From: an uncultured Candidatus Saccharibacteria bacterium
GTDB lineage: Bacteria; Patescibacteriota; Minisyncoccia; Phycocordibacterales; DATDWN01
Direction of reading: 5' to 3'
Length of the DNA stretch: 37,599 bases
NCBI GenBank assembly: GCA_964452635.1
Contig: CAYVMP010000006.1
Location: forward strand, 1 to 37,599
Positions 1-18,014 of this stretch are shown one piece after another; position 1 is the first letter of the stretch, and each line of letters begins with the position of its first letter. The translations under genes were made by a program, and so were the position numbers. A model generated the notes under the pieces. The model saw only the letters and a list, made by a program, of their open reading frames with translations. It made no database searches and was not told the DNA's origin.

Positions 1-2
1 TG

Positions 3-1118
3 ATTACAGAGATTACCGGAGGACGTGTTGGTGGGGGCGTTGATGTGTATACTAAACGAGAACTAGAAATTAAAGTCAAAACATCTGCGAAAAAGATTTC
101 CATGATTCTCGGTGTCGATATTTCTTCACAGAAAATAATTGAGTTGCTTGGCCGGCAACTTATACATGCAGAGGAGAGCGGGGATAGTATCGTGGTTTCT
201 GTTCCACGGGAGCGACTGGATATTCGTTTGGAGGAAGATATTGCTGAGGAAGTTGGAAGACTATACGGATATGAAAATATTGCACCGCAAGAGCTTGCCC
301 TCTCAGGTGGGTATGAAGTCAATCCACTACAATACGTCGAACAGTCAATACGTCGAGCACTCTGTCGAATAGGCTTCTCTGAGATATATACATATGGGTT
401 TGCACAGATGGGTGAGGTTTTGGTTGAAAATCCGCTTGCAGGGGATAAAAAGTTTTTACGATCAAGTTTGCTACCTGCAGTGAGTGCGTCACTTGAGCAT
501 AATTTTAAATTTACTGATCTTCTCGGCATGAGAGAGGTTTTGGTGTATGAAATGGGAACTGTGTTTCGAGAGAGTGGTGAGTTCGTGCATCTTGCACTTG
601 GTGTAAAGTTACCAAAGGGCAAAAAGTCAGATGTTGCTGATGAACGTATTGCGCATGCGATACACACCATTGAAGACGAGCTTGGTGTCTCTGTTGGAGA
701 TGTCTCGATAGTTGGTGGGGTAGCAGAGATAAACATCGAGCGTATCATCTCTGAGGTCAAAGTTCCAGAAAAATATCCGGATGATTTCTGGGTTACACCA
801 CTACATGCACAGGGGAACTACATGCCGATTTCTCCGTACCCATTTGCAGTGCGTGATGTGGCTGTCTTTGTACTAAGTACAGTATCGGCAGAGAGTGTGG
901 AGGGGATTATTCGTACATATCTCACGCCGATTGTCGTACGTTTCTCACTTTTTGATACGTTTACTAAGAATTTTCCTGATGGTACTTCTAAAACTTCGTA
1001 TGCATTTCGTCTCGTTTTCCAGTCTCTCGAGAAAACTCTCACAGATGATGAAATCAACGCAGTCATGAACCCAATCTACGACTCACTCAAGGCACAGGAG
1101 GGGTTTGAGGTGCGATAA
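3..1118 (+). CDS. pheT: Phenylalanine--tRNA ligase beta subunit (PheT), C-terminal part; 5' end lies outside the window
   Basis: The reading frame is open from the window edge. The B5-like segment (RERLDIRLEEDIAEEVGRLYGYENI) and the C-terminal anticodon-binding fold are typical of PheT, and the gene ends at TAA 1116-1118. Confidence 0.8.
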   Translation: MTEITGGRVGGGVDVYTKRELEIKVKTSAKKISMILGVDISSQKIIELLGRQLIHAEESGDSIVVSVPRERLDIRLEEDIAEEVGRLYGYENIAPQELALSGGYEVNPLQYVEQSIRRALCRIGFSEIYTYGFAQMGEVLVENPLAGDKKFLRSSLLPAVSASLEHNFKFTDLLGMREVLVYEMGTVFRESGEFVHLALGVKLPKGKKSDVADERIAHAIHTIEDELGVSVGDVSIVGGVAEINIERIISEVKVPEKYPDDFWVTPLHAQGNYMPISPYPFAVRDVAVFVLSTVSAESVEGIIRTYLTPIVVRFSLFDTFTKNFPDGTSKTSYAFRLVFQSLEKTLTDDEINAVMNPIYDSLKAQEGFEVR

Positions 1119-1180
1119 TTTTCTCACTTTCTATTTTACGCCTATAAATATAGATGTTTTTTAATTAAGAAACATATTAT

Positions 1181-1234
1181 TTATTTGTCAAAAATTTTAT
1201 TGACAAATAATGTATTTTATGGATAATAATCAAC
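1181..1234 (+). promoter_or_regulatory. Promoter (−35 TTGACA 1200-1205, 17-nt spacer, −10 ATAATA 1223-1228) overlapped by a perfect 11-bp inverted repeat, ttatttgtcaa-N8-ttgacaaataa (1181-1210). A hairpin plus T-run (1246-1266) lies in the leader before the RBS AAAGGAGGG
   Basis: Read directly from the sequence. The palindrome is perfect and contains the −35 hexamer. Confidence 0.5.
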
Positions 1235-1284
1235 CAGAACACGACGGGGCACTAGCCCCTTTTATCGTGTGAAAGGAGGGAAAA

Positions 1285-3105
1285 ATGGAAACATTTTTCC
1301 AGACATTGTTGGGTTATTGGTGGGTTCTAGCCATCGTGTTAGTTCTCGCCTGTTACAAACTTGTTTTCCGACTGTTCGGCGCGGTTATCATTCCGCAGGA
1401 CAGTATCGGCATCGTCAACAAGAAGTTCGTTCTGTTCGGCAAGAATCGCACGCTTCCCGACGGGTGCATCATCGCACTCAACGGCGAGGCTGGTATTCAA
1501 GCCGACACGTTGGCGCCCGGGATTCATTTCGGGTTCTGGCCTTGGCAGTACGAGGTTAGGATCGAAGGATTCACTCAGATTGAGGAGGGGATGATCGGTG
1601 TTGTTGAATCTGCCGATGGCAGATCTCTCAGTGCGGGACGTGTCCTTGCAGAACGAGTAGATTGCGACTCCTTTCAGGATGCTCGCAAGTTCCTCACGGG
1701 TGGTGGTGAACGTGGACCGCAAATCACGGTGATTCCTCCAGGAACTTACCGTGTTAACATAGGTCTGTTCACGGTCGTTCAAGAGGAGGCTCTCGAGATC
1801 GAAGATAACATGGTCGGTGTTGTCACGACGCGTGAAGGCAAAGCTCTTCCGACTGGCGACATTGCGGGCGGGGAAATCCGAGGACATAAAATGTTCCAGG
1901 ATGCTCAAGCTTTCATCGATAACGGTGGATTCAAGGGTCTGCAGGAACAGGTCATGCTGGCTGGTAGATACTTCATCAATCCGCGGTTCGCAACGGTGGA
2001 AACCAAACCAATGACCGAGGTCCCGATTGCCAATGCTGGCGTCGTCATCGCTTTCGTTGGTGATGCTGGCGTCGATGTGACAGGAGAGTCATTCAAACAC
2101 GGCAACTTGGTGAAGAGGGGTCAAAAGGGTGTCTGGGTCGAGCCTCTCGATCCGGGCAAGTACCCAATCAACCCTTACACTCACAAGGTGGAATGCGTGC
2201 CAACGGCAAACGTTGTTCTCAACTGGGCAACAGGTAAAACCGAGTCTCACATGCTCGACAAAAACCTGTCCACCATCACTGTTCGTTCGTCCGACGGCTT
2301 CACGTTCAATCTCGACGTTAGTCAGATCATTCACATTCCACGCACCGATGCTCCCAAAGTCATCGCTCGCTTCGGCAGTGTGGCCAATCTGGTCACTCAG
2401 GTTCTCGAACCGACAATCGGAAACTACTTCCGCAACGCTGCGCAAGGGTCCGATGTTATCGAGTTCTTGAAGCAACGGCAACAACGCCAGAATGATGCCA
2501 AAGAGCAGATCTCTGAGGCACTCGAAGATTACAATGTCGGTGCGGTGGACACCCTCATCGGTGACATTACTCCGCCAGCATCGCTCATGACAACTCTCAC
2601 CAACCGAAAGTTGGCTGAGCAGGAGAAGATTACGTACGATACGCAACGTCTGGCCGAGGATACCCGTAAGGAGCTTCAGCAAGCGAAAGCGCTAGCAGAT
2701 ACGCAGGCGCGAGTGGTAGACGCGGAACGGAGTGTTCAAATCGCCGAGTTCAATGCGAAAGCCACAGTCAAGAAGGCTGAGGGTGACGCACTTTCGAAGA
2801 CAATTAACGCCAAAGCTGATGCTGAGGTTCTCACGACCGTTGGCTCGGCTGAAGGTACGAAGATCACGGCAGTCGGTGAGGCAGAGGCGAAGGTTATCCA
2901 GTTAAAGACCAACGCGGTTGGTCCGGGTAACTATGCGATGATTGAAGTCGGCAGAGCACTGGCTGGCAGCGGCTTCAAGTTAGTGCCGGACGTGATCGCC
3001 GGTGGAGGGACTGACGGTGGAAGTTCTGGGATCATCAACGTACTTATGGCAGGAATACTAAAGGACTCGTTGAACGGTCATCGTCAGGAAGTTCCGAAGC
3101 AATAA
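1285..3105 (+). CDS. Flotillin-like SPFH/band-7 membrane protein (YqiK/FloA type). The gene is GC-rich (~58-60%) with C/G-ending codons, unlike the rest of the window
   Basis: The protein has an N-terminal TM segment, an SPFH domain and a C-terminal Ala/Glu-rich coiled coil (AEGDALSKTINAKADAEV...GEAEAKV). An RBS (AAAGGAGGG) sits 5 nt upstream. Codon usage is dominated by ATC, AAC, TTC, GTC, GGC and GAC. Confidence 0.75.
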   Translation: METFFQTLLGYWWVLAIVLVLACYKLVFRLFGAVIIPQDSIGIVNKKFVLFGKNRTLPDGCIIALNGEAGIQADTLAPGIHFGFWPWQYEVRIEGFTQIEEGMIGVVESADGRSLSAGRVLAERVDCDSFQDARKFLTGGGERGPQITVIPPGTYRVNIGLFTVVQEEALEIEDNMVGVVTTREGKALPTGDIAGGEIRGHKMFQDAQAFIDNGGFKGLQEQVMLAGRYFINPRFATVETKPMTEVPIANAGVVIAFVGDAGVDVTGESFKHGNLVKRGQKGVWVEPLDPGKYPINPYTHKVECVPTANVVLNWATGKTESHMLDKNLSTITVRSSDGFTFNLDVSQIIHIPRTDAPKVIARFGSVANLVTQVLEPTIGNYFRNAAQGSDVIEFLKQRQQRQNDAKEQISEALEDYNVGAVDTLIGDITPPASLMTTLTNRKLAEQEKITYDTQRLAEDTRKELQQAKALADTQARVVDAERSVQIAEFNAKATVKKAEGDALSKTINAKADAEVLTTVGSAEGTKITAVGEAEAKVIQLKTNAVGPGNYAMIEVGRALAGSGFKLVPDVIAGGGTDGGSSGIINVLMAGILKDSLNGHRQEVPKQ

Positions 3106-3121
3106 ACAGAAGTTCTTTAAC

Positions 3122-3156
3122 CCCGGCGGTGCGCCTCAAGCGCCCGCCGGATTTTC
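3122..3156 (+). terminator. Rho-independent terminator of the flotillin gene (ccggcgg tgcgcctcaagcgc ccgccgg + ATTTT)
   Basis: GC-rich perfect stem followed by a T-tract. Confidence 0.7.
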
Positions 3157-3196
3157 GTATATAAAATTTTAGTAATATGTGTGATACAATTTATTT

Positions 3197-3727
3197 ATGG
3201 ATTTCATATCACATGGACTATACGGAGGGGTGGCGTTTGGGAGAGAGAACAGAAAGATGTTTTGGTGGGCTTTTTTCTTTGGGATGATGCCAGATATTTT
3301 GGTATTCGGACCGTTTTTCGTACAGCGAATTGTTTCTGCTCTATTTGGACGAGGAGGAGGAAGTTTCCTCGGGAGACCAGAGATGATGTCTATTCCACAG
3401 TATGTGTATGAGGGGTACAACATCACTCATTCTCTCATTGTGTTTCTTTTAGTATTTGGTTTGCTCTGGCTTGTGTTTCGTCGACCAGTGTACGTGGTGC
3501 TCGGATGGCCACTCCACATTCTCACGGATTTATTTACACATTCTACTGAGTTTTTCCCCACACCTATTTTCTGGCCACTGTCGAATTTTCATATAAATGG
3601 TATTCCATGGTCACATCCTATTATTTTCATACCAAATGTGATTTTGCTTATCATTCTGTACACGTATTTTTTCGTCATACGCCCACGTCAGAGAAAGCGA
3701 ATTGAATGGAAAGGGGAGGAAAAGTAA
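3197..3727 (+). CDS. Putative membrane-bound metal-dependent hydrolase (YdjM/DUF457-like), multi-pass membrane protein
   Basis: The protein is 176 aa and hydrophobic, with His-rich motifs (HGLYGG, HSLIV, HILTDLFTHS). An extended −10-like sequence, TGaTACAAT, lies upstream at 3181-3189. Confidence 0.5.
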   Translation: MDFISHGLYGGVAFGRENRKMFWWAFFFGMMPDILVFGPFFVQRIVSALFGRGGGSFLGRPEMMSIPQYVYEGYNITHSLIVFLLVFGLLWLVFRRPVYVVLGWPLHILTDLFTHSTEFFPTPIFWPLSNFHINGIPWSHPIIFIPNVILLIILYTYFFVIRPRQRKRIEWKGEEK

Positions 3728-3788
3728 TACACAGTGAGAGATTGATTTTCTCTGAAGAAAGGAATATTGTTTTGGAGGAGGATCGAGC

Positions 3789-3923
3789 ATGACTTTTTCT
3801 GTTTTTTTGATGAGTGTTGTACCGATGTCTCTGAGGATTTTTTGTGGACTTTGTAAAAGGGCCTACCATCCAGAGCATCGCGCCTGCCCCTTTTGTGGGG
3901 CAAAAAAACCGGCAACACGATAA
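3789..3923 (+). CDS. Small (44 aa) zinc-ribbon protein with a C-x2-C-x10-C-x2-C motif and a hydrophobic N-terminus; not in the ORF track because it is under the length cut-off
   Basis: The start codon is preceded by GGAGGAGG at a 6-nt spacing, and an intrinsic terminator follows immediately (3932-3968). The sequence is MTFSVFLMSVVPMSLRIFCGLCKRAYHPEHRACPFCGAKKPATR. Confidence 0.4.
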   Translation: MTFSVFLMSVVPMSLRIFCGLCKRAYHPEHRACPFCGAKKPATR

Positions 3924-3931
3924 TCATTCTA

Positions 3932-3968
3932 AGCCCAGGGGAAATTCTCTCCTGGGCGTTTGGTTTTG
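3932..3968 (+). terminator. Intrinsic terminator (cccagggg aaattctct cctggg + GTTTGGTTTT)
   Basis: Stem-loop followed by a T-run. Confidence 0.65.
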
Positions 3969-3982
3969 TGTGCTTTTTGTCT

Positions 3983-4011
3983 TTGTTTCCTACAACCAAA
4001 TATGCTATAAT
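3983..4011 (+). promoter_or_regulatory. gyrB promoter: −35 TTGTTT (3983-3988), 17-nt spacer, −10 TATAAT (4006-4011)
   Basis: Consensus −10 element at the correct distance upstream of gyrB. Confidence 0.55.
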
Positions 4012-4035
4012 ACATAGATAAAAAACTATAGTTAT

Positions 4036-6177
4036 ATGTCTAAAGAATCTGAAAAAAAAGTGAAAAAGGACACGCCCACCAACGCTAAAGCTAAGGTGGA
4101 CACGTACGGAGCGGATGCAATCCAGATTTTGGAGGGTCTTGAACCCGTACGAAAGCGTCCTGGAATGTACATTGGTACGACTGGTCCAGACGGTCTTCAT
4201 CACCTTATTTGGGAAATTTTCGATAACTCACGTGACGAAGCCATGGGTGGTCATGCAAATGACATTGAGGTTACACTTTTGCCCAACAACCGTATCCGTG
4301 TTACGGACAATGGTCGTGGTATTCCAGTAGATATTCATAAACAGACCAAGGTGTCTGCGCTTGAAACCATTATGACAACACTCCACGCAGGAGGAAAGTT
4401 TGGTGGTGAAGACGGTGGCTACAAAGTGTCTGGAGGTCTGCACGGCGTGGGAGCATCGGTAGTTAACGCACTCTCTATTTATTGTAAAGTAACTGTTCAT
4501 AAGGACGGAGGTGTGTACATGCAGGAGTACTCTCAAGGCAAGAAAAAAGCACTTGTAAAGAAGATTGGAAGTACTAAAGAACAGGGAACGATTGTTCTCT
4601 TTGAACCTGATACAGCAATCTTTCAATCAGTTGAGTTTGATTTTGACCGAGTGGTCAACCATTTGCGCCAGCAGGCGTATCTCGTGAAGGGCTTGCGGAT
4701 TACAGTCAACGATGCACGTGAATATGCAGGAAAAATAAAAGAGGACGATACATTTAAAATATCTGAGCTTGGGTTGGAAATCCCATCAATGTCATTCTAT
4801 TTCGAAGGAGGTTTACTCTCTCTCGTCAAATTCTACAATAGTACTCAAAAACCGATTCATAAAAATATTTTCTATATTGAGAAAAATACAAACGAGTATG
4901 AGTCTGTTGAGGTATCCCTTCAGTACGTTGACGATATCTCATGTCGAATACTTCCATTTGCAAACAATATTTATAACCCCGAAGGAGGTACGCATGTAAC
5001 GGGATTTAAAACCGCACTGACACGTATTTTGAATGCGTACGCTCGTAAAAATAATTTGATAAAAGAAAGTGAAGATAACTTCACTGGTGACGATGTTCTC
5101 GAGGGTTTGACCGCAGTAATCTCCGTGAAGCTACGAGAGATTCAGTTCGAAGGTCAGACTAAAGCAAAACTCGGTACTGTCGAGGCACAGAGTTCAGTCA
5201 ACACAGTATTCTCTGAAGGATTCACATACTTCCTCGAGGAGAACCCAGATGATGCTCGATCAATCATTTCTAAAGTAGTTCTCGCACTCAAAGCTCGAAA
5301 GGCTGCAAAGGCTGCAAAGGATTCCGTGCTCCGTAAGGGTGTGCTTGAAGGTATGACACTCCCTGGTAAACTTGCCGACTGTCAGTCAAAGAGTTCTGAG
5401 GATTCTGAGCTCTTCATTGTGGAGGGAGATTCTGCAGGTGGTACTGCAAAGACTGGTCGTGATCGACGCACACAGGCGATACTTCCACTTCGAGGAAAGA
5501 TTCTTAACATTGAACGTGCACGTCTCGACCGAATGCTTGAGTCAGAACAGATCAAAAATCTCGTGCTTGCACTTGGAACTGCTATTGGTGATACGTTTGA
5601 TATTGCAAAACTTCGATATCACAAAGTGATTATTGCTACCGATGCAGACGTGGACGGTGCGCATATTCGAACATTGATTCTCACACTTTTTTATAGATTT
5701 TTCCGACCGCTTATTGATGGGGGATTCATATATATTGCTCAACCACCACTCTATAAAATAAAGAAAGGCAAGGAGGTCCACTACGCATATTCAGATGAGG
5801 AGAAGGCGGGTATTGTCGGAAAAGCTGAAGTCGCTGAGATTGGAGAAATCAGCGAGGAAGACCTTGCCCTGCGTAGCTCAAGTGAAGCGCAGAGCGAAGC
5901 AGGGGAAGATGCTGACACTCCTGCTTCGCCAAAGGCTTCGCAGGATAAAGCTAAAGCTTTGAAGATCTCTATTCAACGATACAAAGGTCTCGGAGAGATG
6001 AATGCTGAGGAACTCTGGGAGACAACGATGGACCCTGCTCGTCGAATACTCAAACAAGTTACTGTTGAGGATGGTGTGTCTGCTGACAAGGTATTCGATA
6101 TTCTCATGGGAAGTGACGTTCCATCTCGAAAGTCGTTCATTCAATCAAACGCAACTAAGGCAAATCTTGATATATAA
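4036..6177 (+). CDS. gyrB: DNA gyrase subunit B, with a ~35-40 aa low-complexity insertion in the C-terminal linker that contains a repeated palindromic element
   Basis: The ATPase (GHKL), transducer and Toprim domains are recognisable, including EGDSAGG, PLRGKILN and IQRYKGLGEMN motifs. The linker between YAYSDEE and IQRYKGLGEM is ~60 aa, versus ~20 aa in typical GyrB. Confidence 0.95.
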   Translation: MSKESEKKVKKDTPTNAKAKVDTYGADAIQILEGLEPVRKRPGMYIGTTGPDGLHHLIWEIFDNSRDEAMGGHANDIEVTLLPNNRIRVTDNGRGIPVDIHKQTKVSALETIMTTLHAGGKFGGEDGGYKVSGGLHGVGASVVNALSIYCKVTVHKDGGVYMQEYSQGKKKALVKKIGSTKEQGTIVLFEPDTAIFQSVEFDFDRVVNHLRQQAYLVKGLRITVNDAREYAGKIKEDDTFKISELGLEIPSMSFYFEGGLLSLVKFYNSTQKPIHKNIFYIEKNTNEYESVEVSLQYVDDISCRILPFANNIYNPEGGTHVTGFKTALTRILNAYARKNNLIKESEDNFTGDDVLEGLTAVISVKLREIQFEGQTKAKLGTVEAQSSVNTVFSEGFTYFLEENPDDARSIISKVVLALKARKAAKAAKDSVLRKGVLEGMTLPGKLADCQSKSSEDSELFIVEGDSAGGTAKTGRDRRTQAILPLRGKILNIERARLDRMLESEQIKNLVLALGTAIGDTFDIAKLRYHKVIIATDADVDGAHIRTLILTLFYRFFRPLIDGGFIYIAQPPLYKIKKGKEVHYAYSDEEKAGIVGKAEVAEIGEISEEDLALRSSSEAQSEAGEDADTPASPKASQDKAKALKISIQRYKGLGEMNAEELWETTMDPARRILKQVTVEDGVSADKVFDILMGSDVPSRKSFIQSNATKANLDI
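5865..5904. repeat. 40-nt palindrome-ended element, tgccctgcgtagctcaagtgaagcgcagagcgaagcaggg, inserted in-frame in gyrB and encoding ALRSSSEAQSEAG. An identical copy sits at 17574-17613 in smc. Further GCGAAGC/GCTTCGC palindromes follow in gyrB up to ~5942
   Basis: The 40 nt are identical at both loci. The ends are inverted repeats (ccctgc / gcaggg), and the 10-bp inverted repeat gcgaagcagg / cctgcttcgc lies at 5893-5926. Confidence 0.8.
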
Positions 6178-6186
6178 AAATAAATA

Positions 6187-6216
6187 CCTCACTCACGACG
6201 AGTGGGGTATTTTTTC
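6187..6216 (+). terminator. gyrB intrinsic terminator (cctcactc acgacg agtgggg + TATTTTTT)
   Basis: Stem-loop followed by a T-run directly after the gyrB stop. Confidence 0.65.
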
Positions 6217-6483
6217 AAAACTTTCAACAGTCATGACTTTGCGTTCTGACGCATTAAGCCATATTTCCACTTGGTCGGTATACTCCGACCTTAGTAACGG
6301 ATTTCGTTCATCCGCATGATCAATCTTTACCCAACTATCTTCGAATGTTGGGTAGGTACTGGTTATAGACTTGATATGGGTAGTAATGCTTGGTGTCACC
6401 CAAAATAAACTAACTCTGTACAACGTACACCTCCTTTCCAAGGTTACTGTGGTACAGGTCGTCTGTCAAATTTTTGCAACTAA

Positions 6484-8235
6484 CTATTTCTTCTCTTTTA
6501 TTTCCGTAACAAGTTTTTGCACGAGATCATCGAGTGACATCTGTCCAAGTTGTCCATGATCTCGGGATTCAAGAGTGACTTTATTCGCCTCAATTTCTTT
6601 ATCACCAATGACAATCCAATATGGAATTTTATTATTTTTTGCATCGCGGACTTTTTTGCCGAGATTTTCATCTGCATCATCTAGCTCGACACGAACATCT
6701 GAGTTTCTGAGTGTTTCAAATACCTGACGAGCATAGTCAGTATGATTTACCCTTACAGGGATGACTTTGACCTGTCGCGGTGAGAGCCACAGAGGGAAAT
6801 TTCCTGCAAAGTGTTCGATCATTACTCCCATGAATCGCTCGAGGGATCCAGATATTGCACGATGAATAACCACAGGTCGTTCCTGCTCACCCTTCTCGTT
6901 TGTAAACGAGAGATTAAATCGTTCAGGTAGGTTAAAGTCACACTGGATTGTGGCAAGTTGCCATTCACGACCAATGGCGTCTTTGAACATGACATCGAGC
7001 GTTGGTCCGTAGAATGCTGCTTCCCCCGGTCCGAGTTTGTAGTTGAGTTGGTTTGACTGAGCAACGTCCTCAAGTATTTTCTCCGCTGTTGCCCAGTTTT
7101 CTTCTGTTCCAATGTATTGGCTTTTATCCTCACCGCGAGTAGAGAGTCGTACCCAATAACCCTCTAGCATTCCCATTGTTGTGTAGAATTCTCTAATGAT
7201 TCCCGCAATCGTTCCGGCCTCATCTTTGATCTGAGACATTCTGCAGAACAAATGACCATCATCCTGTGTAATCGCGCGTACTCGAGTGAGTCCTGAAAGC
7301 TGACCCTTTTTCTCATCACGGTAGATAGTTGCAGGTTCAAAATATCGAACAGGCATATCGCGATATGAAAATTGATTGTCAGCAAAGATTTGCATGTGAT
7401 GCGGACAGTTCATCGGCTTCATGAAGAATTTTTCTTCTTTGCCCTGTACTCTAAAAAGCTCATCACCAAACTTTGATGCATGTCCAGATGTTTCGTAGAG
7501 TGCCTCCTTTGCAATGTGTGGTGTCCATACACGAGAGTATCCTTTATTTCTATGAAGACTCCATAGGTAATCCTCGATTTCCTTGCGAATAATCATACCG
7601 TTTGGTTGCATGAGTGGGAGTCCAGAACCAATGAGGTCGGAAACAGTAAAGAGTTTCATTTCTTTTCCGATAATTCGATGATCTCGTTTTTTAGCTTCTT
7701 CAACTTGCCATTCATATTTTTCTAAATCCGCTTTGGATTCAAACGCAAGTCCGTATATACGAGTGAGCATTTTGTTTTCTTCATTACCTCTCCAGTATGC
7801 ACCGGCAATACGTTCGAGTTTCCATGAGTCAGAAGGAATACTACTTACATCATCACTGTGTCCACCACGACATAGGTCAGTAAATGAATTTTTTCCTTCG
7901 CCAGAAGTGTATGTAGTGATAGTCTCTCCCTTGGCATTGATTTCCTCTACGAGTTCTAGTTTGTATGGGTTGTGTGAGAAGTATTCCCGTGCCTCTGCCA
8001 ATGACAGTTCTTTTTTGGAAAAACCTTTCCATGTTTTTCCAATCTGACGCATTTTTTGTTCGATTTTTTCAAAATCTTTGTCTGAAATAGGGGACATGAA
8101 TTCAAAGTCGTAGTAGAACCCAGTGTCGGTCGCGGGTCCTATCGTTGGGAGTGTTTGTGGATACAAATCGAGAATGGCGCAGGCCAATAGATGAGCAAGA
8201 GAATGTCGTATGTGAGGCAATTTTTCGTGTTCCAT
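6484..8235 (-). CDS. thrS: Threonine--tRNA ligase lacking the N-terminal TGS domain; the start is probably the ATG giving MEHEKLPHIRHS..., not the upstream TTG at 8265
   Basis: The N2 editing-domain motif HIRHSLAHLLACAI is present, followed by a class II catalytic core and a C-terminal anticodon-binding domain. ATG lies at 8233-8235 on the − strand. Confidence 0.9.
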   Translation of the reverse strand: MEHEKLPHIRHSLAHLLACAILDLYPQTLPTIGPATDTGFYYDFEFMSPISDKDFEKIEQKMRQIGKTWKGFSKKELSLAEAREYFSHNPYKLELVEEINAKGETITTYTSGEGKNSFTDLCRGGHSDDVSSIPSDSWKLERIAGAYWRGNEENKMLTRIYGLAFESKADLEKYEWQVEEAKKRDHRIIGKEMKLFTVSDLIGSGLPLMQPNGMIIRKEIEDYLWSLHRNKGYSRVWTPHIAKEALYETSGHASKFGDELFRVQGKEEKFFMKPMNCPHHMQIFADNQFSYRDMPVRYFEPATIYRDEKKGQLSGLTRVRAITQDDGHLFCRMSQIKDEAGTIAGIIREFYTTMGMLEGYWVRLSTRGEDKSQYIGTEENWATAEKILEDVAQSNQLNYKLGPGEAAFYGPTLDVMFKDAIGREWQLATIQCDFNLPERFNLSFTNEKGEQERPVVIHRAISGSLERFMGVMIEHFAGNFPLWLSPRQVKVIPVRVNHTDYARQVFETLRNSDVRVELDDADENLGKKVRDAKNNKIPYWIVIGDKEIEANKVTLESRDHGQLGQMSLDDLVQKLVTEIKEKK

Positions 8236-8279
8236 AATGTATACACAATACCAGAAAGCTACCAAAAAATCTAATATGA

Positions 8280-11200
8280 CTACTCGAGTACTTTCACTTT
8301 ATCAACGAGAATACTTTTGCCATCATTACGGGTGGAAAAGGTACCTTTAATGACCACACATCCTTCTGGCACGAGAATATCTTGAAACTCCTCGAATATT
8401 TTAGGAAAGGCGACTGCTTCGATTGAGTCCGTCATATCTGCTATTTTCATGAATATCATTTTATCGCCCTTTTTGGTGACAACTGGTTTTATTTCCTCGA
8501 TGATACCACCGACAACGATTGGTTGTTTTTCTTTTGCTGTCTCTTTGATTTTTCTAATTGTCATTTCTCTTTTATCGAGTTTTTCTTTGAAACTATCAAG
8601 AGGATGTCCAGAAATGTAGAGTCCGAGAAGTTCCTTTTCCCACATGAGGTTGTTTGCAGATGTTCCAGTTGGCGCAGGTACAAGTGTGATCTCTGTCACC
8701 ACATCTCCTCCAGACATGAGAGAGAAAAGTGAGTCCTGAGCAGTTTCTCGAACACGTTCTTCTTTATTGAACATGAGAAGTGTTTCTAGGTTATGGAGAA
8801 GTGTTGCGCGATATTCCGATGCGGGAATGTGAGGAGTGGATAGTGCAAATGAATCAAGAGCCCCAGCTTTGATGAGAGATTCTAGACTTTTTTTGTTGAG
8901 ATTTTTGTCTGTGATGCGTCGAAGGAAATCCGAGAGTGAGACGAATCTTCCATTTTTCTTACGCTCGGAAATGATAAACGTTCCGATACCTTCACCGAAG
9001 TTTTTGATAGTTGTCAGTCCGAATCGTATTGAATCCTTCTCGTCACCCTTAACAACAGTAAATCCTTCGAATGATTCGTTGACATCTGGAGGAAGTACGG
9101 GGATTCCCATACGTTTACACTCACTGACGATTTCAGAAATCATATCAACGTCGCCCGACTCAGCGGTGAGTACGGCTGACATGTATATAGCAGGGAAGTT
9201 TGCTTTCATGTATGCAGTTTGGTATGCAACTTTTCCGTAACTTGCTGCGTGCGCTTTGTTGAAACCATATCCTTGGAATGGTTCAAACAGATCCCATATT
9301 TGTTCTGCTTTTTCGGCTGTCATTCCGCCATGTGTTTGGCAACCCTCCACGAATTTAATGTGTTGTTTTGCCATTTCTTCTCGGATTTTCTTACCGACTG
9401 CTTTTCGGAATTTGTCTACTTCGCCCCATGTGTATCCAGCCACTTCGATAGCGGTCATGAGAAGGTCGTCTTGGTACACGAGCACACCAAATGTACGATC
9501 GAGAAAGTTTTTCATCTTTGGATGCATGTATGTGATTGGTTTTTTGCCGTGTTTTCGAGCAACATATTCATTGATGTTGTCCATCGGTCCCGGACGATAC
9601 AGAGCAACCATCACGTTGATATCGTGGATTGTGGTTGGGCGAAGTTCTTTGAGCCATCGTGTCATGCCATCGCCATTGAGTTGGAAGAGACCAATAGTTT
9701 CTCCACGAGCGAGCATCTCAAAAGTTTTTTTATCATCGACGGGTACATTTTCAATATCAATGTGCGTGTGTTCGATTTTCTCTACAATCTTCACAGCATC
9801 TGCAAGGATCGCGAGGTTTCGAATTCCAAGAAAATCGAATTTGAGGAGGCCAACACCGTCTTCACCGACTGAGTGCATATCGTACTGGGTGATAACTTTC
9901 TGATCACCTTTTGTATCGTACTGGAGTGGCGTGAAATCCGTAAGTGGTGTTGGAGAGATAACGACACCTGCTGCGTGCACAGAAATGTGTCGAGCGGAAC
10001 CTTCGATTTTCTGTGCCATATCGATGATGGTCTTTGTGTCCGGTTCGGTTGTGTACATTTGTTTGAGTTCCGGCACCTCTTTGAGTGCTCGTTCAATGGT
10101 CATTGGGAATCCCTGTGCACCCATTGGTATGAGTTTGGCAATCGTATCTCCGACACCATATGGGAATCCAAGTGCTCGCGTAACGTCGCGTACAGCACCA
10201 CGAGCAGCCATGGTACCGAATGTACCGATCTGAGCAACTTTATCAATTCCATATTTCTGTCGAGCGTATTCGATAACTTCGTCTCGACGATTATCGGCGT
10301 AGTCCATGTCGATATCCGGTGCAGATGGTCGTGATGGGTTTAGGAATCGTTCGAAGGGGAGGTTGTACTCAAGTGGGTTTACGTTTGTAATATGTGAGAG
10401 ATATGTTACAAGTGATCCTGCCACTGATCCTCGAATAGTAGTGAGAATTCCGTTTTCGTGTGCGAAGTTCAGTAGGTCTGATACGACGAGAAAGTATGGC
10501 GCATATCCTTTGTCTTTGATAATAGAGAGTTCATATTCCATACGTTCAAGGAGCTCGGGTGTTCTTTCGAGTCCTCGTGTGGCGATACCATTTTCTGTAA
10601 TAAACCTAAGCTCGTCGTCATATGAGCGTCCACTCGGCACGATGTAGTTCGGAAGTGACCATTTGCCGATTGAAATCTCTAAGTTGCATCGATCTGCGAT
10701 TTTGACTGTGTTTTCGAGTGCATCTGGAATGTTCTTAAAGTATTTCTCTGCTTGTTTTTCAGTAATGAATGAAAAATCCTCATCTGTCACTTCTATTTTC
10801 TCATCTGTTTGTGATTGGATGGACATGAGTGTCTGTCGAGCAACTCTGTCCTCGGGTTCAAGATAGTAGACGTCGTGTGATGCAACGATTGGGGTTTGTG
10901 TTTCTCGTGCAAACGTGATGAGTTTTTGCATCGTTTCCTCGTGACCTTTAATTTCTGGGTGATGAGTAATTTCAATGTAGAAGTTTGGTTCACCATTTGC
11001 ATCTACACCGAATACTTTTTTGTACCATGCCACTCGTTCGAGTGCTTGTTCTGTGTGAGAGAGTTTGACCGATTGTACAATGTCTCCCGTAAATGATGGT
11101 GAAATCGCGATAAGTCCTTCGTGGTATGTTTCGAGAAGTTCACGGTCAATGCGAGGTTTGTAGTAGAACCCCTCCATGTGGGCAAGCGTAACAAGTTTGA

Positions 11201-11507
11201 TGAGGTTTTTGTATCCAGTGTCGTTGACTGCAAGGAGCACAAGACGATACCGCTCTTTGTCGATTTGCTGTTTGTCGTGTCGGCTTCTGTATGCAACGTA
11301 CGCATCAATACCGATGATTGGTTTAATTTCTTTTTTCTTGCATGCTTGGTAGAACTCGATTGCTCCGTATAGGTTACAGTTGTCTGTCAGTGCAATAGCA
11401 GACATGTCATTTTTCTTTGCTTCTGCGACGAGGTCGGGAATTTTAGGTAGTGCGTTAAGCAGGGAGTAGTGGGAGTGGGTATGAAGATGGATAAATTTGG
11501 ATGACAT
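8280..11507 (-). CDS. dnaE: DNA polymerase III alpha subunit
   Basis: The 1075-aa protein has an N-terminal PHP domain (HLHTHSHYSLLNA), a polymerase core and a C-terminal OB domain. Confidence 0.95.
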   Translation of the reverse strand: MSSKFIHLHTHSHYSLLNALPKIPDLVAEAKKNDMSAIALTDNCNLYGAIEFYQACKKKEIKPIIGIDAYVAYRSRHDKQQIDKERYRLVLLAVNDTGYKNLIKLVTLAHMEGFYYKPRIDRELLETYHEGLIAISPSFTGDIVQSVKLSHTEQALERVAWYKKVFGVDANGEPNFYIEITHHPEIKGHEETMQKLITFARETQTPIVASHDVYYLEPEDRVARQTLMSIQSQTDEKIEVTDEDFSFITEKQAEKYFKNIPDALENTVKIADRCNLEISIGKWSLPNYIVPSGRSYDDELRFITENGIATRGLERTPELLERMEYELSIIKDKGYAPYFLVVSDLLNFAHENGILTTIRGSVAGSLVTYLSHITNVNPLEYNLPFERFLNPSRPSAPDIDMDYADNRRDEVIEYARQKYGIDKVAQIGTFGTMAARGAVRDVTRALGFPYGVGDTIAKLIPMGAQGFPMTIERALKEVPELKQMYTTEPDTKTIIDMAQKIEGSARHISVHAAGVVISPTPLTDFTPLQYDTKGDQKVITQYDMHSVGEDGVGLLKFDFLGIRNLAILADAVKIVEKIEHTHIDIENVPVDDKKTFEMLARGETIGLFQLNGDGMTRWLKELRPTTIHDINVMVALYRPGPMDNINEYVARKHGKKPITYMHPKMKNFLDRTFGVLVYQDDLLMTAIEVAGYTWGEVDKFRKAVGKKIREEMAKQHIKFVEGCQTHGGMTAEKAEQIWDLFEPFQGYGFNKAHAASYGKVAYQTAYMKANFPAIYMSAVLTAESGDVDMISEIVSECKRMGIPVLPPDVNESFEGFTVVKGDEKDSIRFGLTTIKNFGEGIGTFIISERKKNGRFVSLSDFLRRITDKNLNKKSLESLIKAGALDSFALSTPHIPASEYRATLLHNLETLLMFNKEERVRETAQDSLFSLMSGGDVVTEITLVPAPTGTSANNLMWEKELLGLYISGHPLDSFKEKLDKREMTIRKIKETAKEKQPIVVGGIIEEIKPVVTKKGDKMIFMKIADMTDSIEAVAFPKIFEEFQDILVPEGCVVIKGTFSTRNDGKSILVDKVKVLE

Positions 11508-11517
11508 GGTGGTTGGA

Positions 11518-11710
11518 TTTTAAAAAATAATTTCTTTCTCACCACTTCATTTTGAGAGACCCCGTCTCGGCGTGCTCGCCGATCGGTTGCCTCGAAAATC
11601 TAAGAAAACAATGTCCTCGACCGTGTACCATTCACGGTCTCGTCCTTGTTTTCTAAATTTTATGCGAAGTCTCTCAAAATGAAGTGATTCAACGAAATTA
11701 TTTTTTAAAA
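11518..11710. repeat. Structured intergenic element, copy A (~190 nt). Arms of ~35 bp form an imperfect inverted repeat (11526-11560 versus 11669-11702) enclosing a ~105-nt core with two local hairpins. Related to the copy at 24755-24925 and to a miniature copy at 1115-1170
   Basis: The left arm, aataatttctttctcaccacttcattttgagagac, pairs with the right arm, gtctctcaaaatgaagtgattcaacgaaattatt, with an internal 8x7 loop. The core hairpins are cggcg-tgct-cgccg and ccgtg-taccatt-cacgg. Confidence 0.6.
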
Positions 11711-11761
11711 CTATCATATTGTACCATGTCATCCAAAGTTGTGGTGAGGGGGGTGTTTTAT

Positions 11762-11794
11762 AAAAAAAAGAAACCCGGTGCTAGACAGGTTTCT
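11762..11794 (-). terminator. Intrinsic terminator after the RHH gene on the − strand (gaaacc ... ggtttc + T8)
   Basis: The reverse complement shows a hairpin followed by TTTTTTTT. Confidence 0.6.
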
Positions 11795-11810
11795 GATTAT
11801 TGATGTTGAT

Positions 11811-12056
11811 TTAGACAGGGATATCTTCAAAGATATCTATTTCTTCGTATCGCCCATCTTTTTTGATTGCGAACTCATGTCCTTGCCGATGCAGTTCCCA
11901 GAGCAAAATGAGTATCTGGCACCCATTTCGCACCGATGCTCCTAGACTCGGAGCATCCATTTCTTTTTTGATTGATTCCAAATCGGCAAAAAGTTTAGTC
12001 GGAAAATCAATCGTTAGTCTCTTGTTTGCCTTTTTTGTTTCGAGTTTAATAATCAT
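11811..12056 (-). CDS. Small ribbon-helix-helix (CopG/Arc-like) DNA-binding protein
   Basis: The N-terminal KRLTIDFPTKLFADLESIKKE matches the RHH beta-strand/helix pattern, and its own terminator lies downstream. Confidence 0.5.
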   Translation of the reverse strand: MIIKLETKKANKRLTIDFPTKLFADLESIKKEMDAPSLGASVRNGCQILILLWELHRQGHEFAIKKDGRYEEIDIFEDIPV

Positions 12057-12124
12057 TCTGATGAGTTTTATAACGTATTATTTAATTTTAGTCAAAAAAT
12101 TATTGAGTGTGTTAAAATTAATTC

Positions 12125-12739
12125 ATGAAATACATTATCGGTATAGATGAGGTGGGGCGGGGGCCTTTGGCAGGGCCGGTGACTGTTGGGGTCGTGGCGT
12201 GTAAAGCGAATGTGTATACGAAACTCAAGAAACTCAGGCAATTGCCCTTGGTGGGCAAAGACAGCAAGAAACTATCAGTGGCTGATCGAGAAAAATATTC
12301 AAAAATATTACAGTTACTTGCCGAGGAGGAAGCGATTTATTTCTCAATCATTCATATTTCGAATACTGTAGTAGACAGCAGAGGAATTTCCTTTGCTATT
12401 AGAAAGGCAATGGCTGATGGTTTGAAGAAAATACAGAAAAGGGTTGGCTTCAATCCACGGGAGTGCGACCTACGACTTGATGGGGGACTTCGAGCACCAC
12501 GTGAATTCACACACCAGAAAACAATCATAAAAGGTGATGAAAAAGAAAAAATTATTGCGTGGGCGTCAATTCTCGCAAAGGTTTCTCGGGACAGGGTGAT
12601 GGTGCAAGCAGGGAAAAAGTTTCCTCAATACGGATTTGAGATTCATAAAGGATACGGCACTTCTAAACACAGGGAGGCAATCCGTACTCATGGTTTAAGT
12701 CACATTCACCGCAAAACTTTTTGCAGGAGTTTGGTATGA
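12125..12739 (+). CDS. rnhB: Ribonuclease HII
   Basis: The MKYIIGIDEVGRGPLAGPV motif and a DE..D catalytic core are present. Confidence 0.9.
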   Translation: MKYIIGIDEVGRGPLAGPVTVGVVACKANVYTKLKKLRQLPLVGKDSKKLSVADREKYSKILQLLAEEEAIYFSIIHISNTVVDSRGISFAIRKAMADGLKKIQKRVGFNPRECDLRLDGGLRAPREFTHQKTIIKGDEKEKIIAWASILAKVSRDRVMVQAGKKFPQYGFEIHKGYGTSKHREAIRTHGLSHIHRKTFCRSLV

Positions 12740-12780
12740 AAGGGTGGGACGTGTGGTTCCACAATAACCCCTTGTTTTTT
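12740..12780 (+). terminator. Probable rnhB terminator: an imperfect hairpin followed by TTGTTTTTT. An extended −10 (TGaTAGTAT, ~12793-12801) for rpmF follows
   Basis: T-run directly after a GC-containing hairpin. Confidence 0.45.
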
Positions 12781-12820
12781 ATACGAGGTGTGATAGTATA
12801 GTCACATTATGGTAGTACGA

Positions 12821-13036
12821 ATGCGACATACACGAAGTCAGAGAGGAAATACGCGTTCACACCACGCGCTCTTTAATCCTGCAGTTACAGTTGATGCACA
12901 GACACAGGTTCCTCACTTGCGACACCGAGCATCTCTCCAGACTGGTCAATACAAAGGCAGAACAGTGATTGATGTTCAAGCAAAACTCGACCGCAAAGCA
13001 AAGAAGGCACAGGAGGCAAAGAAAGAGGGAAGATAA
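12821..13036 (+). CDS. rpmF: 50S ribosomal protein L32 with a Lys-rich C-terminal tail
   Basis: MRHTRSQRGNTRSHHAL...HLRHRAS...YKGRTV matches the L32 signature. Confidence 0.8.
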   Translation: MRHTRSQRGNTRSHHALFNPAVTVDAQTQVPHLRHRASLQTGQYKGRTVIDVQAKLDRKAKKAQEAKKEGR

Positions 13037-13110
13037 TTATCCACTTTTTATTTATATTTTCTTTTGTTTTATTTTAAATATGATTGTATACTGGTATTAA
13101 ATACAGTTGT

Positions 13111-14007
13111 ATGGCAAACAGGCACCTTTCAAGATCAATAGTTCTCCAATCCCTATTTGAATGGGATTTCAATCATACGTCTGCCGAAAAGGCAAAGGAA
13201 ATTTTCGTCCGTAATGCAGAGGAGTTTGCTCCTGGGCAGGGCGATTTTTCTTTTATGGAAAATCTATTCACTGGTGTGCTCGATAAACAAAAAGACATCG
13301 ATGTAATTATCGAGAAAGCAGCTCCAGACTGGCCAATTGATAAAATCAGCGTGATGGATAGAAACATTATTCGTATCGGTCTCTTTGAACTCCTTTTTGC
13401 TGATCGTTCTCAGGTACCACCAAAGGTTGCTATTAATGAAGCAATCGAGCTTTCTAAGACATTCGGAGGTGAGACATCCGGCAAATTCGTAAACGGTGTA
13501 CTCGGTGCTGTATATAAAGAACTTGGTGAACCGGGCAAGGAAGAAACATCTCGCGATAAGAAAAACGGCAATCCTGCAAACGTTGTCGCTCCTACGGAGT
13601 ACCTCGGTGGCGCAGTGGTATATGCACGTGACGGTGAGGATGTATATCTCGCACTTGTTCATGATGTATTCGGACGATGGACTCTTTCAAAAGGTCATAT
13701 TGACGGTGAAAAGGATCCAATCGAAGAAATCAAACGCATTATAAAAGATGAGATTTCTTTGGACGTTACTGTGCAGGATAAACTTGGAAGTAATGAATAT
13801 GTCACGTACCATCCAGAAAAAGGCAAAATAAAAAAGAACGTAACATATTATCTCGTTGAATCTCCCTATGTTGATGTGAAGCTTGTAAACTCTGGTGGGC
13901 TTGACGATGCTCGATGGTTCAAGATGGGTGATATACTTGACCTTAATTTTTATAATGATATTCTACCGCTAGTTACTAAGGCGATTAATATACTGTTAAA
14001 GAAATAA
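13111..14007 (+). CDS. nusB: NusB antitermination factor fused to a C-terminal ~150-aa Nudix-fold-like domain with a degenerate Nudix box
   Basis: The N-terminal 140 aa form a typical NusB (SRSIVLQSLFEWDF...DRNIIRIGLFELLF). The C-terminal GEKDPIEEIKRIIKDEISLDV resembles GX5EX7REUXEEXGU, but with RE replaced by DE and EE by LD. Confidence 0.7.
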   Translation: MANRHLSRSIVLQSLFEWDFNHTSAEKAKEIFVRNAEEFAPGQGDFSFMENLFTGVLDKQKDIDVIIEKAAPDWPIDKISVMDRNIIRIGLFELLFADRSQVPPKVAINEAIELSKTFGGETSGKFVNGVLGAVYKELGEPGKEETSRDKKNGNPANVVAPTEYLGGAVVYARDGEDVYLALVHDVFGRWTLSKGHIDGEKDPIEEIKRIIKDEISLDVTVQDKLGSNEYVTYHPEKGKIKKNVTYYLVESPYVDVKLVNSGGLDDARWFKMGDILDLNFYNDILPLVTKAINILLKK

Positions 14008-14037
14008 TAACAGTCGACAATACTAACTACTCTGTCT

Positions 14038-14730
14038 ATGCATGACTTCTCTGAGTTCGAAAAAAATACAGGTTTGGATTTTAAAGACAAGGGGTTGCTC
14101 AAACAAGCCTTTGTTCATCGTTCATATATAAATGAAAATAAGGGTTCAAAACTTGAACACAATGAACGACTTGAATTTCTCGGTGATGCGGTGCTTGAGC
14201 TCGTGATCACAGATTTCCTCTATAGAGAATATCCAGCGAAGCCTGAGGGTGAATTGACGGCATTTCGATCTGCTCTTGTAAATGCGGATACATGTGCAGG
14301 TATCGCAACATCACTTGCTGTTAATGATTTTCTCCTTCTCTCAAAAGGTGAGAGCAAGGATATGGGTCGTGCTCGACAGTACATACTCGCAAACGCACTC
14401 GAAGCTATCATTGGTGCAATCTATTTGGATCGTGGGTATGATAGCGCAAAGGTTTTCATTGAGGCGCATTTCGTACCACGAATTGATTCTATTATTTCTG
14501 CACGAAGTTTTATTGATGCAAAATCACTCTTTCAGGAAAAGGCACAAGAGTTTGAGAGTGTAACTCCATCGTACCGAACAATCAAAGAAGTTGGTCCGGA
14601 TCATGGTAAGCAATTTACTGTCGGTGTCTATATTGGAAAGGAATTAGTGGCAACTGGTGATGGTCTCTCTAAGCAGGATGCGGAACAATCCGCAGCTCGT
14701 AAGGCACTTGAGGTTCGTGGATGGGAATAA
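14038..14730 (+). CDS. rnc: Ribonuclease III
   Basis: The ERLEFLGDAVLELVITDFLY signature is followed by a C-terminal dsRBD. Confidence 0.95.
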   Translation: MHDFSEFEKNTGLDFKDKGLLKQAFVHRSYINENKGSKLEHNERLEFLGDAVLELVITDFLYREYPAKPEGELTAFRSALVNADTCAGIATSLAVNDFLLLSKGESKDMGRARQYILANALEAIIGAIYLDRGYDSAKVFIEAHFVPRIDSIISARSFIDAKSLFQEKAQEFESVTPSYRTIKEVGPDHGKQFTVGVYIGKELVATGDGLSKQDAEQSAARKALEVRGWE

Positions 14731-14742
14731 TTTTTAAAAATT

Positions 14743-15060
14743 TTGCAAAATAAAAGCTCCCTGTCTTGGTTCAGGGAGCACGGTCACACGTTTATCCAGG
14801 ATGAGGGGTTCAAATCCCCCGAGCACCCAATTTCAAAGGAGAATTGCGGGCCCACAATTTCTCCTGTCACCCCACCCAAAAGATGGTTTTGGATTTTTCC
14901 CTTTAAGAGACCGATCGTGATGATCAGTCCAGAAGCTTTAGTAGTGTTCTGCCAAAACACTACTTCTTCGACCCAAGTGTCTTGTTTGGATAGGCTAGAG
15001 CATGACTCTAAAACCTAACTTCATTCAAGGGAATCACCGCCCGAAGGCTTTTTGTTTTAT
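14743..15060 (+). ncRNA. Structured ~300-nt noncoding region ending in an intrinsic terminator (15037-15060). It contains a tRNA/tmRNA-like T-arm plus acceptor 3' strand (GAGGGGTTCAAATCCCCCGAGCACCCA, 14803-14830). Its identity is unresolved; the 91-aa ORF called here is probably spurious
   Basis: A canonical T-loop, TTCAAAT, lies between 5-bp G/C stems. Several local hairpins are visible (14756-14780, 14838-14864, 14941-14962). No complementary 5' acceptor strand was found. Confidence 0.35.
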
Positions 15061-15142
15061 TCGTGTCTAGGAGTAACACTATTTTATTTTTCATTTCCTG
15101 TCAACATGTTGGTGTGGTACACTTATATCTAGGAGGTGTGCT

Positions 15143-15478: not shown

Positions 15479-15496
15479 GGCCACCCTTTTGTTTTA
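15465..15496 (+). terminator. Intrinsic terminator (agggtg cgccatagggc caccct + TTTGTTTT)
   Basis: Stem-loop followed by a T-run. Confidence 0.6.
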
Positions 15497-15543
15497 TGTT
15501 CCCAAAATGTATAATGAAGTTTGTTAAAAATAAATTTGTTGAA

Positions 15544-15636: not shown

Positions 15637-15669
15637 GTGAGAAAAAATTTATTTTACACACTGAAAACT

Positions 15670-17961: not shown

Positions 17962-18014
17962 CTCCTTGATTATTTTGTAAAAAAGTGTAGAAATATGTGT
18001 GGAGGTAAGCGAAA

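Follow-up and report, generated by a model that had tools for sequence, protein, structure and literature searches.

We analysed a 37.6-kb stretch of DNA from a metagenome-derived contig (CAYVMP010000006.1; hereafter the window), in which a single gene, encoding a protein of the SPFH family, differs sharply in nucleotide composition from its surroundings. The horizontal origin of this gene is well supported. It was probably acquired long ago from GC-rich bacteria, as a gene for a membrane-anchored SPFH scaffold, and its composition has since been partly adjusted (ameliorated) to that of an AT-rich host. The initial annotation of the locus, made from the sequence alone, had also described the gene as foreign to its lineage, and this view has held: nucleotide composition, an empty site in a relative, a comparison of composition across the whole gene family and phylogeny all point to acquisition.

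The GC content of the gene is 0.530 (0.582 at third codon positions, GC3), compared with 0.419 for the remaining 35.8 kb of the window. The 23 other long open reading frames (ORFs) have a GC content of 0.40-0.45 and GC3 of 0.30-0.44. When the sequence was scanned in 500-nt segments, the SPFH gene was the only part of the 37.6 kb to exceed 50% GC (mean of 0.534 within the gene and 0.420 outside it, sd 0.028, maximum 0.496). Its codon usage is similarly deviant: the Karlin B distance from the other genes, taken together, amounts to 0.499, about 4 sd above the value for ORFs longer than 400 aa (0.253 +/- 0.060, maximum 0.355). The compositional outlier is therefore genuine and far beyond chance, and the gene stands out in both of the checks proposed with the initial annotation, i.e. 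sliding-window GC and GC3 and codon usage. The contrast is weaker than originally described. A GC content of 58-62% had been given for the gene, and only short segments within it attain 0.60-0.64; the codons, said to be overwhelmingly C/G-ending, end in C or G in 58% of cases (C 31%, G 27%, T 25%, A 16.5%). Moreover, the island had been delimited at 1285-3156; the start is correct, while the ORF stops at 3105 and the longer span takes in the terminator. The codon bias is a general shift in GC3, visible in four-fold degenerate families (GC3 0.52 vs 0.28-0.46) as well as in A/G-ending (NNG use 0.60) and NNC/NNT (NNC use 0.69) pairs. Codon positions 1 and 2 are also richer in GC than in the flanks (0.504 vs 0.451), so that amino-acid composition supplies about 0.05 of the excess in total GC.

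The best matches of the gyrB product from the window (83-87% aa identity) come from Patescibacteria/Parcubacteria, several of them named Ca. Zambryskibacteria. Judged by this gene, the host is a Parcubacteria genome of the candidate phyla radiation (CPR) close to Ca. Zambryskibacteria, and its description as a reduced genome is thus fair. Through gyrB homologues we reached syntenic relatives, and the site occupied by the SPFH gene could be compared in six genomes: the window and loci L071, L076, L077, L159 and L160 (L-numbers, L001-L160, label the homologous or syntenic loci fetched for comparison). The YdjM protein, used as a query in a metagenome scan for such relatives, gave one match at 32%. 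The relatives have in common a block of genes in the order GT2, pheS/T, gap, gyrB, an aminoacyl-tRNA synthetase gene, dnaE, rnhB and rpmF, and the content of the gap varies. In L160, pheT and gyrB are separated by 136 nt with no gene, i.e. the site is empty. L159 carries an ORF of 134 aa instead of the SPFH gene. The gap of L077 (6643-8000) also lacks it; here, two GC-rich ORFs lie on the minus strand between flanking genes with GC3 of 0.28-0.33. The longer one encodes 161 aa and has GC3 of 0.67, the N-terminus of the shorter one (about 115 aa) is hydrophobic, and a separate GC-rich hairpin terminator follows each of them. L076 contains the SPFH gene alone, and the window and L071 contain this gene, ydjM and a 44-aa zinc-ribbon-like ORF. 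The SPFH gene is therefore missing from the syntenic site in three of the six relatives (L160, L159 and L077).

A single gene with sharp compositional edges on a metagenome-derived contig could also be produced by faulty assembly or binning, i.e. by the joining of a GC-rich fragment to a CPR contig. A chimeric join, which had been named as a possible refutation of the foreign island, is ruled out by L071, an independent JGI contig from another organism, collinear with positions 1014-4667 of the window (88.5% nt identity). It has the same gene order (pheT-SPFH-ydjM-gyrB) and reproduces both junctions, the intergenic regions of which are 93% and 99% identical. The same arrangement is present in L076 directly upstream of gyrB, and the probability of an artefact is practically negligible.

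Copies as GC-rich as the gene in the window do occur at the syntenic position. The L071 orthologue has GC3 of 0.59 (flank GC 0.415), and the copy in L076, whose gyrB product is 84% identical to that of the window, has GC3 of 0.63 with neighbours of 0.30-0.43. It might be supposed from this that the gene is an ancient resident whose high GC content is imposed by a family-wide constraint, for instance from amino-acid composition or mRNA structure. Consistent with such a constraint, the GC content of the gene in almost every AT-rich host is 0.04-0.10 above that of its flanks, and GC at codon positions 1 and 2 is about 0.50 in the close homologues regardless of host. This accounts for the above-mentioned 0.05 of total GC and for none of the GC3 excess. 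Among the 160 homologue loci fetched, 131 had enough flanking ORFs for a family-wide comparison, which revealed that GC3 of the SPFH gene follows that of the host over the range from 0.14 to 0.96, with a typical excess over the flank median of about +0.03; on AT-rich phage contigs it is as low as 0.15-0.30. Since GC3 matches the host in most of these loci, a high value is not intrinsic to the family. Of the loci with compositionally tight flanks, the window (+0.19, z 7.2 against its own flanking ORFs) and L076 (+0.26, z 5.0) rank among the most extreme outliers. An ancient constrained gene, an outcome that the initial annotation had linked to GC-rich syntenic orthologues, is unsupported because of the empty site, the different cargo in two relatives and the dependence of family GC3 on the host; this explanation is largely refuted and most improbable. 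Still larger excesses over the flanks (+0.23 to +0.42) were recorded in two metagenome-assembled genomes (MAGs) labelled 'uncultured Gammaproteobacteria' (L029 and L056) and in two Saccharibacteria (L033 and L035); this suggests independent, probably younger, acquisitions of the gene by other AT-rich genomes.

It was also considered whether the C/G-ending codons of a native, highly expressed gene could reflect translational selection. The gene has a seemingly strong promoter and Shine-Dalgarno sequence, and two-fold degenerate codons show a preference for NNC (TTC 0.92, TAC 0.82, ATC 0.65, AAC 0.69). However, the bias extends to four-fold families and A/G-ending pairs, and rpsB and tsf of L076, used as an expression control, have four-fold GC3 of only 0.18-0.27 (0.64 in the SPFH copy of L076) and NNC use of 0.17-0.38. 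Taking into account also the empty sites in relatives and the position of the gene among those of GC-rich hosts, this explanation is extremely improbable.

The phylogenetic evidence is based on neighbour-joining trees (200 bootstraps). The proteins of the window and L071 grouped together in 100% of bootstraps and were nested among copies sharing 79-84% identity, from hosts with a flank GC content of 56-64% (85.5% bootstrap). This clade includes Sumerlaeota, Hyphomicrobiaceae, a 5.99-Mb chromosome and others. Further CPR copies (Harrisonbacteria, Saccharibacteria and another Patescibacteria genome) branch elsewhere, i.e. the CPR copies are polyphyletic. The tree places the donor lineage, which it was suggested should be sought by phylogeny, probably within a clade of GC-rich hosts; at the DNA level the donor cannot be identified, because synonymous sites are saturated with respect to all non-CPR homologues. 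Of the signs commonly taken as evidence of horizontal gene transfer, three were found, namely a deviant composition exceeding family and expression effects, absence from the syntenic site in relatives and a gene tree in conflict with the organism tree; neither an identifiable vector nor insertion scars were seen. Exact-sequence look-ups of the SPFH protein (P0001) and of the gyrB match P0126 returned no record.

The initial annotation had regarded the acquisition as recent, with the codon usage of the donor still intact. The strong contrast in GC3 and codon usage, the sharp edges at the intergenic regions and the 82-84% identity of the nearest non-CPR proteins could be read in this way. However, the orthologue of L071 (272-2092), which occupies the same site and has the same composition, differs from the gene in the window at 34% of synonymous third positions (synonymous divergence, dS, 0.83; nonsynonymous divergence, dN, 0.036), L076 carries a copy at this site with a homologous terminator, and third-position differences from every non-CPR homologue amount to 0.52-0.54, i.e. 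saturation. Moreover, GC3 of the gene is already far below that of the sister clade (0.67-0.87). A recent date is contradicted for any age shorter than the split between the window and L071, and is very unlikely overall; since the acquisition is older than the split from the closest sampled relative, it should be considered old. The gap in GC3 to the sister clade fits partial amelioration, as does the fact that 87% of the third-position differences between the window and L071 oppose G/C and A/T. The dN/dS ratio of 0.043 in the comparison with L071 indicates that the gene is under purifying selection.

Several points weigh against the reading as a single old insertion followed by amelioration, or limit it. 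The insertion is accompanied by no mobility gene, integrase, transposase, tRNA or flanking direct repeat, and a search for direct and inverted repeats around the island gave chance-level matches only. Among the substitutions separating the window and L071 that could be polarised, 59 of 68 are from GC to AT (124 sites were ambiguous), an excess that fits amelioration but whose polarisation is biased by outgroups that are all GC-rich. Two lineages have kept the GC-rich state although their gyrB genes are close to synonymous saturation, which strains the idea of simple amelioration if there was a single old insertion; a two-state amelioration clock could not tell one early insertion from a pair of younger events. 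Furthermore, the SPFH gene is 2.3-3 times more diverged between the window and L071 than ydjM and gyrB, in both dN and dS, and amelioration alone does not explain this excess. With regard to the product, cage formation, topology and function are proposed from a predicted monomer and by analogy.

These observations bring into consideration a second scenario, in which the gap between pheT and gyrB repeatedly takes up foreign DNA and the body of the SPFH gene has been replaced at least once through recombination with incoming GC-rich alleles, thereby staying GC-rich in spite of the age of the cassette. Four different gap contents, three of them GC-rich, were found in the six related genomes. Although site and promoter architecture are common to the window and L076 and their terminators are homologous, the two proteins were never sisters (0/200 bootstraps), and the gene of the window nests among copies from GC-rich hosts. 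The excess divergence from L071 lies next to the intergenic DNA conserved at 93-99%, and is itself mosaic, with third-position differences rising from 0.28 upstream of codon 324 to 0.45 downstream (p = 0.001). The varied cargo, the non-sister position of the two copies and the mosaic divergence together suggest a hotspot with allele replacement. On the other hand, the long branch of L076 may mislead neighbour joining, the sample comprises only six genomes, and the mosaic pattern may reflect uneven constraint. We regard this scenario as possible, although not as the likely one.

According to the preferred reading, i.e. an old and partly ameliorated acquisition, a Parcubacteria lineage would have taken up a single-gene cassette in the variable gap between the phenylalanyl-tRNA synthetase gene and gyrB, the donor being a higher-GC bacterium that carried a member of the 79-84%-identity clade. 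The new host would drive the gene from an AT-rich promoter of the CPR type, and strong purifying selection would retain it. Amelioration would be only partial, so that GC3 (0.58) remains well above the level of the host (about 0.37). The locus resembles classical genomic islets in its compositional deviation, its patchy presence with an empty site among close relatives and its phylogenetic incongruence. It differs from them in consisting of a single gene under a host-type promoter, without integrase, tRNA target, direct repeat or transposase.

The features recognized in and around the gene are listed below.

Table. Features of the SPFH gene and of the adjacent part of the pheT/gyrB gap in the window.
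Feature	Position	Strand	Basis and remarks
AT-rich near-perfect palindrome, ATGTTTTTTAATTAAGAAACAT	1154-1175		between pheT stop codon and SPFH promoter; conserved in L071
Inverted repeat, 14-nt arms TTATTTGTCAAAAA / TTATTGACAAATAA	1181-1210		arms 93% complementary; overlaps -35 box
Sigma-70-like promoter, TTGACA-16-GATAAT	1200-1227	+	consensus match only (11/12), the best in window 1-20000
5' leader hairpin, GGGGC/GCCCC core at 1246-1259, followed by TTTT	1239-1270	+	
Shine-Dalgarno sequence, AAAGGAGG	1272-1279	+	read from sequence; 5 nt ahead of ATG
SPFH-family gene (606 aa), GC-rich island	1285-3105	+	ORF call, Pfam; GC 0.530, GC3 0.582
N-terminal hydrophobic helix (aa 2-31), predicted membrane anchor	1288-1377	+	AlphaFold2 (AF2) helix 2-30; sequence
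Four beta-repeat modules (aa ~33-95, 96-170, 171-245, 246-305)	1381-2199	+	the last forms the start of the SPFH domain
SPFH/Band_7 core (aa 281-468)	2125-2688	+	Pfam
Long Ala/Glu-rich helices (aa 432-561), then Gly-rich linker and C-terminal helix (aa 584-596)	2578-2967	+	AF2
Intrinsic terminator, 11-pair stem 3123-3150, then ATTTT	3123-3155	+	-23.6 kcal/mol, z -3.8
YdjM-family membrane protein gene	3197-3727	+	Pfam PF04307, E 8.6e-10; native-like GC3 0.42
44-aa ORF, CxxC...CxxC zinc-ribbon-like motif	3789-3923	+	GGAGGA Shine-Dalgarno; terminator 3933-3957

The region upstream of the gene is AT-rich, and the sigma-70-like match with its overlapping inverted repeat agrees with the original description of a native-looking promoter and operator. 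The inverted repeat is identical in L071, and the L076 copy is preceded by an analogue (TTGTCAA-N8-TTGACAA); the repeat in the window is a candidate operator or, alternatively, may represent a pair of back-to-back -35 boxes. The leader segment 1228-1290 has a folding energy of -17.8 kcal/mol (z -2.3). Its hairpin, a candidate mRNA stabiliser or attenuator, is kept in L071 with one change in the loop, and non-homologous hairpins occur at the equivalent place in many homologous loci of other phyla. The outer stem of the terminator (AACCCCGGCGG...CCGCCGG), immediately after the stop codon, was found only in the window, L071 and L076 among the 160 loci. The terminator is GC-rich, as had been noted, but it does not point to a foreign origin, because the native terminators of the window (3933-3957, 18646-18669 and 19413-19436) are equally GC-rich hairpins. 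Scans of the window against Rfam and for tRNA genes gave no matches.

The surrounding genes are those of a core chromosome (pheT, gyrB, a class II aminoacyl-tRNA synthetase gene, dnaE, rnhB, nusB-NUDIX, rnc, smc, the genes of RNase R and PBP2, uvrA, uvrC, mreB/C, greA and a lysS-like gene). The SPFH gene itself lies between pheT and the YdjM-family gene, and the reported absence of an adjacent NfeD partner is thereby confirmed; no NfeD-like neighbour was found either at any of the homologous loci with tabulated genes (L001, L002, L072, L073 and L076). Of the five relatives, only L071 also has ydjM in the variable gap; L076, L077, L159 and L160 lack it. The 44-aa ORF, the final element of the gap ahead of the gyrB promoter, is conserved with conservative substitutions at L071 2775-2906; it is too short to appear in standard ORF lists. 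A role of the locus in defence and an origin as a phage remnant were also considered and found no support within the window. PADLOC gave no match, and PHROGs only phrog_200 ('lipoprotein').

Some further features lie outside the island. Two adjacent plus-strand ORFs without a Pfam match (18015-18638 and 18752-19405; 207 and 217 aa) are each followed by an identical 24-nt terminator (ATCCTCCGGTACACGCCGGGGGAT; 18646-18669 and 19413-19436) and look like a tandem duplication. In one plus-strand ORF (13084-14007), a NusB domain at the N-terminus is joined to a NUDIX hydrolase domain at the C-terminus. The dnaE gene of L160 (9603-14150, minus strand) contains an intein (Intein_splicing and LAGLIDADG), which is not present in dnaE of the window (8280-11507).

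The classification of the product as a flotillin/SPFH protein is correct as regards the SPFH part. Pfam PF01145 (Band_7/SPFH) was matched at aa 281-468 with 99.2 bits (cut-off 23.6, E 3.6e-28), and was the sole match at E <= 1, with no Vault, MVP_shoulder or Flot domain. The name flotillin applies only loosely, considering the missing Flot domain, the weakness of the profile match between the region of the long helices and residues 248-402 of flotillin-2 (E 3.5e-4) and a predicted architecture resembling vaults and SPFH cages. Sequence searches of the PDB yielded only QmcA and the C-terminal region of flotillin-2, both weakly. A first AF2 run with a shallow alignment (sequences at least 67% identical) was discarded (pLDDT, i.e. 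predicted local confidence, 52.6). After the addition of 46 homologues with 33-37% identity, the monomer model reached pLDDT of 74.7, and 80-92 within the repeats, of which modules 96-170 and 171-245 align with z 17.8. In Foldseek searches with this model the major vault protein (MVP) came top (E 1.7e-11 to 1e-9), followed by prohibitin, HflK/C, erlin, stomatin and flotillin. Like the solved cage proteins, the predicted model contains the SPFH alpha/beta fold with a long helix after it, and the predicted fold has the MVP-like order of domains (beta repeats, shoulder, cap helix). Since K25 and R29 follow the hydrophobic helix, the bulk of the protein is probably cytoplasmic.

If these predictions are correct, the product would be a membrane-anchored scaffold that oligomerises into a membrane dome or cage, like HflK/C, flotillin, QmcA, prohibitin and erlin, and three additional vault-like beta-repeat modules, placed between the anchor and the SPFH core, would make the wall of this cage longer. 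These modules correspond to the approximately 250 residues by which the protein exceeds the cage proteins HflK/C, QmcA, prohibitin, erlin, stomatin and flotillin in this region. It differs from the latter also in the absence of the Flot domain, of an NfeD/YqiJ/YuaF partner and of an HflC-type paralogue nearby. The distance to HflK/HflC is further evident from the score obtained with NCBIfam TIGR01932 (22.7 bits vs a cut-off of 134.4) and from the single gene without a paired paralogue. SPFH1/2 proteins are known to be partnered with NfeD, and YqiK/SPFH2 forms an operon with the NfeD-like gene YqiJ/YuaF (PMC2636767). The JGI annotation of many homologues is 'uncharacterized membrane protein YqiK', and the protein shares with E. 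coli YqiK (COG2268) an SPFH domain, an inner-membrane location and a similar length class, but it lacks the NfeD-like neighbour; the comparison with YqiK is by description and label only. MVP is a soluble 78-mer barrel associated with vault RNA, TEP1 and PARP4, whereas the hydrophobic helix predicted here argues for a membrane-bound protein. There are about four repeats instead of the nine of MVP, with 9-14% identity between the sequences. Two preprints (10.1101/872010, 10.1101/2023.11.10.566534) describe phage MVPs and bacterial MVP-like proteins that contain Band-7; these are about 810-820 aa long and detectable by BLAST from human MVP. The SPFH family described here, in contrast, is not detectable by BLAST from MVP.

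The family is widespread. More than 8000 homologues of the SPFH protein were found, many at 75-84% aa identity, and identities of 70-84% are kept across more than 10 phyla while synonymous sites are saturated. Carriers among species representatives belong to Sumerlaeota, Acidobacteriota, Gemmatimonadota, Ignavibacteriota, Bacteroidota and Verrucomicrobiota, and others to Spirochaetes, Proteobacteria, Planctomycetes, Cyanobacteria and several CPR groups. A copy in a Methanoregulaceae MAG (L038) is interrupted and was not counted as firm evidence of archaeal carriage. Frequent horizontal transfer of prokaryotic SPFH genes was reported by Hinderhofer et al. in 2009 (PMC2636767). Searched by itself, the repeat region matches the representatives of 1616 clusters defined at 50% identity. 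In five proteins of 1300-1800 aa (P0361, P0362, P0363, P0366 and P0370) 6-10 matched repeat stretches precede Band_7, and the number of repeats in the family must therefore be highly variable; P0361 and P0366 have an additional C-terminal VWA domain. Vault and MVP_shoulder domains were also undetected in four of the multi-repeat relatives (E <= 1).

Homologues are also carried by mobile replicons. They were identified on Ralstonia megaplasmids (57-63% identity), on a 642-kb huge phage in GenBank (54%) and on 97 IMG/VR stretches, many of which lie on contigs of 200-675 kb. Full-length homologues with 50-73% identity are frequent on viral contigs of this size (IMG/VR loci L079-L158; GenBank LR756502.1, 343802-345550). 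On one of these (L088, 578 kb) a gene for a T4-type large terminase lies 3 kb upstream of the SPFH homologue. No plasmid or phage copy exceeds 73% identity to the protein of the window, and phage delivery into this genome, although possible, is for this reason unsupported. A full-text literature search for a connection of SPFH proteins with huge phages yielded no paper.

The transfer itself is ordinary biology; it provides a clean and well-controlled example of the fixation of one foreign gene in a reduced CPR genome, and illustrates that the age of a transfer can hardly be read from GC contrast alone. One site adjacent to gyrB contains different GC-rich cargo in related Parcubacteria, and this bears on gene acquisition by these DNA-scavenging episymbionts. 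The SPFH family is uncharacterised and highly conserved. Its conservation across phyla despite synonymous saturation, together with its frequency on phage contigs of 200-675 kb, indicates a strong and portable selective value. A broader view, which we put forward as speculative and rather unlikely, would combine a hotspot for GC-rich genes with allele swaps upstream of gyrB in Zambryskibacteria-like Parcubacteria and a family of phage-carried, membrane-anchored 'mini-vaults' that spreads across phyla and forms tall cages on the membrane. Its members would contain MVP-like repeats, varying in number, together with an SPFH shoulder and a cap helix and, if this is true, could represent, on the prokaryotic side, a link from SPFH cages to the vaults of eukaryotes. 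The predicted architecture appears nearer to MVP than to any solved SPFH protein, and relatives carry many more repeats; the family may therefore offer tractable prokaryotic material for studying the relationship between the vault wall and the SPFH cage. Both the hotspot behaviour of the site and this vault-like, phage-borne and ultra-conserved family are worth following up.

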